A DNA stretch of 64,000 nt, taken from assembly GCF_016026235.1 (NCBI RefSeq), contig NZ_CP065613.1. One strand, written 5' to 3'. Shown in pieces: positions 9,207-11,664 of this stretch; positions within the stretch are counted from its first letter, which is position 1; each line of letters begins with the position of its first letter. The translations under genes and the position numbers were made by a program. The DNA comes from Escherichia coli (lineage in GTDB: Bacteria > Pseudomonadota > Gammaproteobacteria > Enterobacterales > Enterobacteriaceae). Under the pieces are notes generated by a model. That model was not told the DNA's origin. It did not search any database and saw only the letters and a program-made list of their open reading frames with translations.

Positions 9207-10117
9207 CTATTCCAGTTCTTGTCGACATGGCAGCGCTGTCATTGCCCCTTTCGCCGTTACTGCAAGCGCTCCGCAACGTTGAGCGAGATCGATAATTCGT
9301 CGCATTTCTCTCTCATCTGTAGATAATCCCGTAGAGGACAGACCTGTGAGTAACCCGGCAACGAACGCATCTCCCGCCCCCGTGCTATCGACACAATCCA
9401 CAGACATTCCAGCAAAATGGTGAACTTGTCCTCGATAACAGACCACCACCCCTTCTGCACCTTTAGTCACCAACAGCATGGCGATCTCATACTCTTTTGC
9501 CAGGGCGCATATATCCCGATCGTTCTGTGTTTTTCCACTGATAAGTCGCCATTCTTCTTCCGAGAGCTTGACGACATCCGCCAGTTGTAGCGCCTGCCGC
9601 AAACACAAGCGGAGCAAATGCTCGTCTTGCCATAGATCTTCACGAATATTGGGATCGAAGCTGACAAAACCTCCGGCATGCCGGATCGCCGTCATCGCAG
9701 TAAATGCGCTGGTACGCGAAGGCTCGGCAGACAACGCAATTGAACAGAGATGTAACCATTCGCCATGTCGCCAGCAGGGCAAGTCTGTCGTCTCTAAAAA
9801 AAGATCGGCACTGGGGCGAACCATAAACGTAAATGAACGTTCCCCTTGATCGTTCAGATCGACAAGCACCGTGGATGTCCGGTGCCATTCATCTTGCTTC
9901 AGATACGTGATATCGACTCCCTCAGTTAGCAGAGTTCTTTGCATTAACGCACCAAAAGGATCATCACCGACCCGACCTATAAACCCACTTATTCCGCCTA
10001 ATCTGGCGATTCCCACCGCAACGTTAGCTGGCGCGCCGCCAGGACAAGGCAGTAGGCGCCCGTCTGATTCTGGCAAGAGATCTACTACCGCATCCCCTAA
10101 AACCCATACTTTGGCTG
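9207..10117 (-). pseudogene. cscK: CscK fructokinase, 5'-truncated: body lacks its ATG and first five codons, which lie on the far side of IS4
   Basis: Frame reads ...AKVWVLGDAVVDLLPESDGRLLPCPGGAPANVAVG... to ...CRQELE*; original ATG-TCA (M-S) sits at 11554-11559 beyond the IS4 right end. Confidence 0.85.
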
Positions 10118-11543
10118 TAATGCCGATCAGTTAAGGATCAGTTGACCGATCCAGTGGCTGTGTAAGAATCCGGAAACGCTCACTTGTTTCCGGATTTTTT
10201 TATGCACATTGGACAGGCTCTTGATCTGGTATCCCGTTACGATTCTCTGCGTAACCCACTGACTTCTCTGGGGGATTACCTCGACCCCGAACTCATCTCT
10301 CGTTGCCTTGCCGAATCAGGTACTGTAACGCTACGCAAGCGCCGTCTTCCCCTCGAAATGATGGTCTGGTGTATTGTTGGCATGGCGCTTGAGCGTAAAG
10401 AACCTCTTCACCAGATTGTGAATCGCCTGGACATCATGCTGCCGGGCAATCGCCCCTTCGTTGCCCCCAGTGCCGTTATTCAGGCCCGCCAGCGCCTGGG
10501 AAGTGAGGCTGTCCGCCGCGTGTTCACGAAAACAGCGCAGCTCTGGCATAACGCCACGCCGCATCCGCACTGGTGCGGCCTGACCCTGCTGGCCATCGAT
10601 GGTGTGTTCTGGCGCACACCGGATACACCAGAGAACGATGCAGCCTTCCCCCGCCAGACACATGCCGGGAACCCGGCGCTCTACCCGCAGGTCAAAATGG
10701 TCTGCCAGATGGAACTGACCAGCCATCTGCTGACGGCTGCAGCCTTCGGCACGATGAAGAACAGCGAAAATGAGCTTGCTGAGCAACTTATAGAACAAAC
10801 CGGCGATAACACTCTGACGTTAATGGATAAAGGTTATTACTCACTGGGACTGTTAAATGCCTGGAGCCTGGCGGGAGAACACCGCCACTGGATGATACCT
10901 CTCAGAAAGGGAGCGCAATATGAAGAGCTCAGAAAACTGGGTAAAGGCGATCATCTGGTGAAGCTGAAAACCAGCCCGCAGGCACGAAAAAAGTGGCCGG
11001 GACTGGGAAATGAAGTGACAGCCCGCCTGCTGACCGTGACGCGCAAAGGAAAAGTCTGCCATCTGCTGACGTCGATGACGGACGCCATGCGCTTCCCCGG
11101 AGGAGAAATGGCGGATCTGTACAGTCATCGCTGGGAAATCGAACTGGGATACAGGGAGATAAAACAGACGATGCAACTGAGCAGGCTGACGCTGAGAAGT
11201 AAAAAGCCGGAGCTTGTGGAGCAAGAGCTGTGGGGTGTCTTACTGGCTTATAATCTGGTGAGATATCAGATGATTAAAATGGCGGAACATCTGAAAGGTT
11301 ACTGGCCGAATCAACTGAGTTTCTCAGAATCATGCGGAATGGTGATGAGAATGCTGATGACATTGCAGGGCGCTTCACCGGGACGTATACCGGAGCTGAT
11401 GCGCGATCTTGCAAGTATGGGACAACTTGTGAAATTACCGACGAGAAGGGGAAGGGCCTTCCCGAGAGTGGTAAAGGAGAGGCCCTGGAAATACCCCACA
11501 GCCCCGAAAAAGAGCCAGTCAGTTGCTTAACTGACTGGCATTA
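10118..11543 (+). mobile_element. IS4 (1426 bp) with 18-bp terminal inverted repeats and a 12-bp target duplication ATACTTTGGCTG (10106-10117 and 11544-11555)
   Basis: Ends TAATGCCGATCAGTTAAG ... CTTAACTGACTGGCATTA; length and IRs match IS4; identical 12-mers flank the element. Confidence 0.95.
10202..11530 (+). CDS. insG: IS4 transposase InsG (442 aa)
   Basis: [69 protein letters not shown]...; contains [15 protein letters not shown] (Y-x2-R-x3-E-x6-K). Confidence 0.95.
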
Positions 11544-11664
11544 ATACTTTGGCTGACATTTTTTTCCCTTAAATTCATCTGACTTACGCATAGTGATAAA
11601 CCTCTTTTTCGCAAAATCGTCATGGATTTACTAAAACATGCATATTCGATCACAAAATGTCATA

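Follow-up and report, generated by a model that had tools for sequence, protein, structure and literature searches.

We consider it likely that a recent IS4 transposition into the first codons of cscK has separated cscKB from its start codon and promoter, leaving the strain sucrose-negative or very leaky for sucrose use. The insertion lies in a 64-kb stretch of Escherichia coli DNA, the whole of which is referred to as the window. Other E. coli genomes carry IS4 at the same nucleotide, and this nucleotide-level evidence for the cscK start as a recurrent IS4 target is the modest new element of the analysis.

The inserted element and its target duplication

The element shares all testable defining features of IS4 (insG) of E. 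coli, the type element of the IS4 family, and structurally nothing about it is different (Table 1). Its length and its 18-bp imperfect terminal inverted repeats starting TAATGCC are those expected of IS4; the two termini, TAATGCCGATCAGTTAAG and TAATGCCAGTCAGTTAAG, match at 16 of 18 positions. At the nucleotide level it is 99.0–99.4% identical to copies that, in thousands of genomes, are annotated as 'IS4-like element IS4 family transposase'. InsG is identical to a RefSeq InsG at 446 of 448 residues and carries the substitutions I249L and E423G (448-aa numbering) relative to a common InsG allele. It gives Pfam matches to Nterm_IS4 (PF13006, 7.6e-33) and DDE_Tnp_1 (PF01609, 1e-31). The perfect 12-bp target duplication falls within the 11–13 bp typical of IS4 (12–14 bp at the other copies we looked at), and ATACTTTGGCTG occurs only twice when both strands of the window are searched. 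The original prediction of a 1426-bp IS4 with 18-bp ends, an intact insG and identical flanking 12-mers is thereby borne out, the ends being imperfect repeats. From the recent insertion, with the open reading frame and both ends intact, we infer that this copy of IS4 is functional. Besides this IS4, two copies of ISEc60 and a short stretch resembling IS1 were the only IS sequences seen in the 64 kb. A Shigella origin of the window was considered, but nothing was found to support it, the nearest genomes being labelled E. coli.

Table 1. Features of the interrupted csc locus, with positions in the window
Feature	Position	Strand	Remarks
cscB, sucrose permease	7888..9135	-	415 aa, intact; downstream of cscK in the same operon
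cscK body, PfkB-family fructokinase	9207..10117	-	otherwise identical to the intact FDAARGOS_943 allele
First canonical in-frame cscK start	10074..10076	-	TTG, codon 16
Target-site duplication, left copy	10106..10117		ATACTTTGGCTG; on the minus strand, from the last two bases of cscK codon 2 to the first base of codon 6
IS4	10118..11543	+	1426 bp; IRL 10118-10135, IRR 11526-11543, 16/18 complementary
In-frame ATT in the IS4 end	10119..10121	-	IS4 positions 2-4; cscK start in PGAP at this junction
Second stable hairpin, IS4 left end	10160..10195	-	11-bp stem
insG transposase	10202..11530	+	intact; 442 aa from ATG 10202, 448 aa from TTG 10184
Terminator-like element just inside IRR	11504..11539	- (cscK-sense)	11-bp perfect stem GCCAGUCAGUU/AACUGACUGGC, then UCUUUUUCGG
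Orphaned native cscK start	11527..11559	-	ATG 11559-11557 with AAGGGA ribosome-binding site upstream; opens a 10-codon remnant that enters IS4
Target-site duplication, right copy	11544..11555		ATACTTTGGCTG
Divergent csc control region	11560..11773		intact, still joined to cscA
12-bp palindrome, two copies	11665-11676 and 11728-11739		GTTAACGTTAAC; putative CscR operators, read from the sequence
cscA, invertase	11774..13207	+	477 aa, intact
cscR, LacI-family repressor	13215..14210	-	intact

The csc locus and the cscK reading frame

The genes around the element are arranged as a csc locus, with cscB and cscK transcribed leftwards, cscA rightwards and cscR leftwards, between argW and a dsdX remnant followed by dsdA. 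The neighbours (yfdC, tRNA-Arg, truncated dsdX and dsdA) are the same as in annotated genomes. The encoded proteins belong to the expected families, namely a PfkB kinase, a LacY-like permease, a GH32 invertase and a LacI-type repressor; Pfam matches were taken on loci 99.97–100% identical to the window, and cscR was assigned from annotation. A csc control region with two 12-bp palindromic operators has been described (PMC11251922, citing Jahreis 2002). In csc, cscB follows directly after cscK within a single operon, and growth on sucrose requires both cscB and cscA (PMC3938415).

Joining cscK across IS4, with the element and one 12-mer removed, gives MSAKVWVLGDAVVD... and an uninterrupted CscK of 304 aa. 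With IS4 in place the cscK frame reads stop-LIGITAKVWVLG. The coordinates agree with the original prediction that the 12-mer corresponds to codons 2–6 of cscK, with the Met-Ser codons ATG-TCA (TCA at 11556-11554 on the minus strand, beside the native ATG) and the control region to the right of the element and the cscK body and cscB to the left. The body was also said to lack an ATG, its first start-like codon being the TTG at 10076. This is correct among ATG, GTG and TTG, but an in-frame ATT at 10121-10119 had been overlooked. Starting at the TTG would delete the N-terminal strand and the GDAVVD motif.

The empty site and the age of the insertion

The nearest complete genome, that of E. coli FDAARGOS_943, is 99.9% identical to the window over a 20 kb flank and retains an uninterrupted cscK. 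The reconstructed empty site matches it at 100% over 823 bp, one copy of ATACTTTGGCTG being restored, as the original prediction had anticipated for alignment to an intact locus. The wild-type N-terminus likewise reads MSAKVW... as predicted, both in the fully identical FDAARGOS_943 empty site and in a published E. coli W primer, ATGTCAGCCAAAGTATGGGTTTTAGG, that agrees with it (PMC3938415). Across 8.8 kb around csc, the window is separated from FDAARGOS_943 by three SNPs, located in mlaA, yfdC and dsdA, and by a single 3-bp indel, which falls in cscA; over this comparison no differences were found in cscB, cscK, cscR or the control region. Decay of the downstream genes after the insertion was considered and ruled out, none being found relative to FDAARGOS_943. 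IS4 is thus the sole lesion of the csc locus in the window.

Since the nearest complete genome keeps the empty site and is only three SNPs and a 3-bp indel away in 8.8 kb, a recent insertion is supported. The claim of a recent and unhealed event holds on this evidence and on the undecayed state of csc, with the addition that the allele belongs to a small clade. The exact hybrid protein, M-TAKVW..., is encoded on approximately 16 NCBI contigs, indicating an allele that is common to this clade and not private, and in five further NCBI assemblies the locus is 99.97–100% identical to the window, IS4 included.

Recurrence of IS4 at one nucleotide of cscK

We surveyed 5,426 complete E. coli genomes, of which 2,663 carry this part of csc. 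The site is uninterrupted in 2,650 of the latter. Six complete genomes are occupied (JNEC-KY173, CE0021a, 789, ST866, ST865 and RMDEC465), all with the same IS4 position, orientation and 12-bp duplication as the window. These six represent three csc haplotypes, the window being a fourth. Between haplotypes the flanks differ by 1–4% and the IS4 copies by only 0.2–0.8%. Every occupied haplotype has a 99.9–100% identical empty counterpart elsewhere when the 2.4-kb reconstructed empty site is compared; the SNPs that distinguish the haplotypes start 12–39 bp outside the element, and internally the IS4 copies are distinct, differing at 3–12 positions. We take these observations to mean that IS4 has inserted independently at least four times at the same cscK nucleotide in E. 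coli lineages.

The same 12-mer is also where draft contigs start in S. flexneri and in a large group of E. coli, the latter with 169 contigs, although these contigs do not identify the IS. Contig starts inside the 12-mer are the expected signature of a repeat element, suggesting that the same site is occupied in S. flexneri. In mutation-accumulation lines of K-12, IS4 accounted for 8 of 758 new insertions (PMC5009759). Given this small share, the recurrence is due to the choice of target or to selection, or to the two together, and not to a highly active element. The exact duplication at cscK, on which the original prediction had relied, is therefore real but not unique to this genome, the site being a recurrent IS4 target.

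It is conceivable, but in our view rather unlikely, that cscK::IS4 is at once a natural hot spot and a selected, reversible on/off switch of sucrose uptake as opposed to random decay. If it were, the orientation-specific repeat insertions in unrelated E. coli lineages, and probably in S. flexneri, would be a mark of selection and the exact 12-bp repeats would allow precise excision.

Target architecture

We reconstructed IS4 targets at bamD-raiA, ydeE, a prophage BRO-N gene, yhdZ-rrf and lpp-ldtE, together with a half-site in ygcG. When further BLAST hits were sampled for IS4 sites, six of eight proved to be bamD-raiA, and the other two were the new full site lpp-ldtE and the half site ygcG. 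All seven distinct sites examined have the same layout, with an A-run, 2–4 bases, a 12–14 bp duplication, 2–4 bases and a T-run. At cscK this reads AAAA-ccc-[ATACTTTGGCTG]-aca-TTTTTTT. This sequence arises from the A-run between the cscK ribosome-binding site and the ATG on one strand and from the V-L-G codons on the other. Most of the sampled targets are terminator-like palindromes; the cscK site conforms to the layout without a palindrome, and it is a location other than bamD-raiA, which is widely occupied.

The IS4 target consensus reported by Mayaux et al. in 1984 is said to be AAA-N20-TTT. The cscK site satisfies this consensus, and our own sample of seven sites backs it. Since a loose A4-N16-21-T5 pattern occurs approximately eight times in the 64-kb window, such a pattern would be insufficient on its own to explain the repeated use of the cscK nucleotide. 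The site offers a clean natural case for studying how the IS4 transposase reads A-tract/T-tract targets.

Predicted effects on transcription, translation and sucrose use

Transcripts from the native cscKB promoter would meet a strong secondary structure on entering IS4. The terminator scan picked up a hairpin in which IRR pairs with the adjacent inner sequence, forming an 11-bp stem followed by UCUUUUU. Its folding energy is -26.6 kcal/mol (z = -4.3), a stability that none of 200 shuffled sequences reached. Because the U-tract behind it (UCUUUUUCGG) is interrupted, termination at this point may be partial. The second stable hairpin, in the left end of IS4, precedes insG and is followed by a U-run on the plus strand; the minus strand offers no more than a weak U-tract there. 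Any read-through from the right end would consist of 1.4 kb of untranslated antisense RNA, and a long RNA of this kind is a classic substrate for Rho-dependent polarity.

It is plausible, and supported in silico, that cscKB is uncoupled from its promoter and that sucrose uptake is lost through polarity on cscB. The loss of CscK itself is most likely secondary to this polarity. AUU initiates poorly in E. coli, and no Shine-Dalgarno sequence was found upstream of the ATT at 10121-10119; trace amounts of CscK could nevertheless be made from this AUU start.

We propose the following course of events. A functional IS4 copy would have entered the first codons of cscK, at a site that was probably chosen because its A-run/T-run layout fits the target architecture preferred by IS4. 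Staggered cuts 12 bp apart, followed by gap repair, would have produced the ATACTTTGGCTG duplication. The cscK body would then have been cut off from its ATG and Shine-Dalgarno sequence, the native start yielding only the 10-codon remnant. Transcripts of cscKB, controlled by CscR and CRP, would enter IS4 by its right end and encounter the hairpin and U-tract within about 20 nt, and those that read through would be expected to be Rho-sensitive. In this way cscB would be deprived of the one promoter known for it. No sucrose should then enter for lack of the permease, and the strain would therefore be sucrose-negative or very leaky despite intact cscA, cscR and operators. Precise excision between the 12-bp repeats would bring back the wild type.

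Masking of the disruption by annotation

PGAP gives each of the six complete genomes that have this junction a full-length cscK of 304–305 aa, started at the ATT in the IS4 end. The product, M-T-A-K-V-W..., differs from the wild type solely by S2T. We think this ATT start is best read as a rescue driven by homology, which conceals that the gene is disrupted. Surveys that judge sucrose utilisation by gene presence would score such strains as csc-positive, and a masked cscK could account for some of the csc-carrying isolates that fail to grow on sucrose without an identified cause. For the genome studied here, a sucrose-negative or very slow phenotype is predicted although its automated annotation shows a complete csc locus.

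Alternative explanations

An assembly artefact, in which a repeat-resolution error misplaced an IS4 copy into csc, can be given hardly any credence. IS copies commonly cause misassembly, but nothing specific favours such an error here, and it would have to account for a perfect 12-bp duplication at both junctions and for the same junction in six independent complete genomes, besides the five assemblies nearly or fully identical to the window. A more serious alternative, still very improbable in our judgement, is that one ancient insertion was spread by homologous recombination, or that the empty sites are precise excisions, with no independent recurrence at all. The uniform position, orientation and duplication in every occupied genome would follow readily from a single origin, but a target-specific transposase would give an identical position as well. 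The IS4 copies are also much more alike than their flanks, as expected if one element had spread, and gene conversion among IS4 copies could produce the same effect. Excision on the scale needed is implausible given some 2,650 empty genomes against six occupied ones. Since each occupied haplotype has its near-identical empty counterpart over 2.4 kb, since the haplotype SNPs lie so close to the IS ends that there is no room for IS-carrying recombination tracts, and since the internal alleles of the IS4 copies differ, transfer of one ancestral insertion among the haplotypes appears very unlikely, and we retain repeated insertion at one nucleotide as the preferred reading.

The remaining alternative accepts the insertion and concerns its effect, which would be leaky or silent. 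Read-through, or a cryptic outward or hybrid promoter, would feed cscK and cscB, so that sucrose use is kept and is perhaps constitutive and CscR-free; CscK would be made from the AUU in the IS4 end, or would be dispensable. The start accepted by PGAP indeed gives a full-length 304-aa protein with a single substitution, but this ATT lacks a Shine-Dalgarno sequence and is a poor initiator. For transcription, a hybrid candidate promoter, TTAACT-17 nt-AAGTAT (7/12), was found by reading the sequence and straddles the left end of IS4 and the duplication. It lies below the scan threshold; at that threshold the minus strand of 8900–11900, which includes IS4 and cscK, yielded no promoter-like site. 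This negative result is weak since the scan, being of low sensitivity, missed the native cscKB promoter too. The imperfect U-tract after the IRR hairpin would also allow some read-through, whereas the high stability of the hairpin argues the opposite. The csc reading frames are undecayed in the clade of the window and in the other occupied lineages, with the exception of a cscA frameshift in RMDEC465, and this may be counted in favour of a leaky or silent insertion; intact downstream frames are however expected anyway for a recent insertion. In Shigella, moreover, IS-interrupted csc loci correlate with a sucrose-negative phenotype (PMC11251922). On balance we regard a leaky or silent insertion as unlikely, and favour the separation of cscKB from its promoter with loss of sucrose uptake.

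Comparison with known systems

The cscK::IS4 insertion is a well-understood kind of event that public annotation already contains, IS4 disruption of csc having been reported for Shigella; it leaves the current understanding of IS elements or sucrose metabolism unchanged. Among the older cases, work from the Starlinger laboratory and by Mayaux et al. in 1984 reportedly described strongly polar IS4 insertions in galT and the pheST attenuator, with highly specific sites and 11–13 bp duplications. These share the target consensus with cscK and concern different operons, and serve as a lead rather than as a test.

IS4-linked reads have been reported on the plasmid pCscBKA in DH5alpha (bioRxiv 10.1101/2024.12.20.629655). 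The mutation table of that study lists both 'IS4-like element ISVsa5' (IS10-type) and 'IS4 family'. As the identity of the element is ambiguous and the junction is given only in a figure, we did not use this report as support for a hot spot.

Shigella carries IS1, IS3 or IS4 elements within cscK and cscB, and these interruptions have been linked to a sucrose-negative phenotype (Front Microbiol 2024, PMC11251922). The likeness to the present locus is that IS elements, IS4 among them, disrupt cscK/cscB and leave cscA and cscR intact. The Shigella loci however carry several IS insertions and deletions, whereas the locus described here is from E. coli and has no lesion besides IS4. That the Shigella and E. 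coli sites are identical is only suggested, the published account being given without a nucleotide-level junction.

A further parallel is scrY::IS3 in E. coli F/ST62, where a sucrose operon has an IS 12 bp inside its first gene and the phenotype is Suc- (PMC11251922). This insertion is present in a few related isolates whose close relatives are intact, and Suc+ papillae appear after prolonged incubation (PMC11251922). It differs from cscK::IS4 in that it affects the Scr PTS pathway and involves another IS, and in that phenotype and reversion were observed there and are predicted here. The two cases are alike in combining an early insertion in the first gene of a sucrose operon with few, related carriers and intact relatives.

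Gene calls and variants at the csc locus

By comparing IS4-occupied csc loci from other Escherichia coli genomes (L001–L003, L005 and L006) we find that the cscK start has been removed by IS4, yet the RefSeq/PGAP annotation calls an intact gene of 304–305 aa, whose product is named either 'aminoimidazole riboside kinase' or 'fructokinase'. The start codon chosen by PGAP is an ATT that lies within the IS4 inverted repeat, equivalent to 10119–10121 on the minus strand of the window. Such IS4–cscK hybrid proteins are represented in NCBI by ~16 and 77 contigs.

Relative to the window, cscA of FDAARGOS_943, the nearest complete genome with an empty cscK site, carries a 3-bp insertion (ATC) at window 13114. 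The cscA CDS is 1437 nt long in FDAARGOS_943; in the window, as in the other annotated genomes, it measures 1434 nt (477 aa). In the csc control region (window ~11697) the window and FDAARGOS_943 read CATTATGAAAG, and the haplotypes of the IS4-occupied genomes 789, JNEC and RMDEC465 read CATTTATGAAAG; this 1-nt difference falls inside a promoter-like −10 hexamer found upstream of cscA by promoter scan. The only secondary lesion seen across the IS4-occupied csc loci was in RMDEC465 (L003), where cscA is also annotated as frameshifted. Beside csc, the truncated dsdX is the usual scar left where the csc island has taken the place of dsdC together with the 5' portion of dsdX.

Features of the window outside the csc genes
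Feature	Window position	Orientation	Setting
Truncated dsdX remnant	14441–14659		immediately upstream of dsdA (intact)
IS4-family element (ISEc60), copy 1	43121–44418	inverted relative to copy 2	inside fryC
IS4-family element (ISEc60), copy 2	51052–52349	inverted relative to copy 1	between nupC and pdeA
IS1-like stretch (367 nt)	59545–59911		LysR-type regulator gene on one side, next ORF on the other

Other insertion sequences in the window

The two IS4-family copies, annotated as ISEc60 in FDAARGOS_943, are 100% identical to each other. The 6.6-kb segment between them (fryC'-fryB-glk-yfeO-ypeC-mntH-nupC) lies in opposite orientations in FDAARGOS_943 and the window, the window retaining the K-12-like gene order. 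Judged against the intact genes of FDAARGOS_943, the transposase ORF of copy 2 carries an AGA to TGA nonsense change at window 51851, and the same change is found at the equivalent position of copy 1, leaving an ORF of ~255 aa in the window versus the intact 396-aa transposase in FDAARGOS_943. Since an identical nonsense change is present in both copies, their sequences suggest gene conversion between them.

The IS1-like stretch is probably a remnant. In a related assembly (L014) yfdC is interrupted by IS1-type sequence, to which the stretch is 91.5% identical. A search of this stretch for the canonical IS1 end motif did not find one.

IS4 at bamD-raiA in other genomes

Among the best-ranked E. 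coli matches the most frequent IS4 location is the bamD-raiA intergenic region (L007, L008, L025–L028, L030 and L031), where the target is a terminator-like palindrome and the duplications are 13 or 14 bp. In SCU-172 the right flank of this IS4 copy is ygcG instead of the usual bamD-raiA flank, an arrangement of sequence that indicates an IS4-mediated rearrangement.
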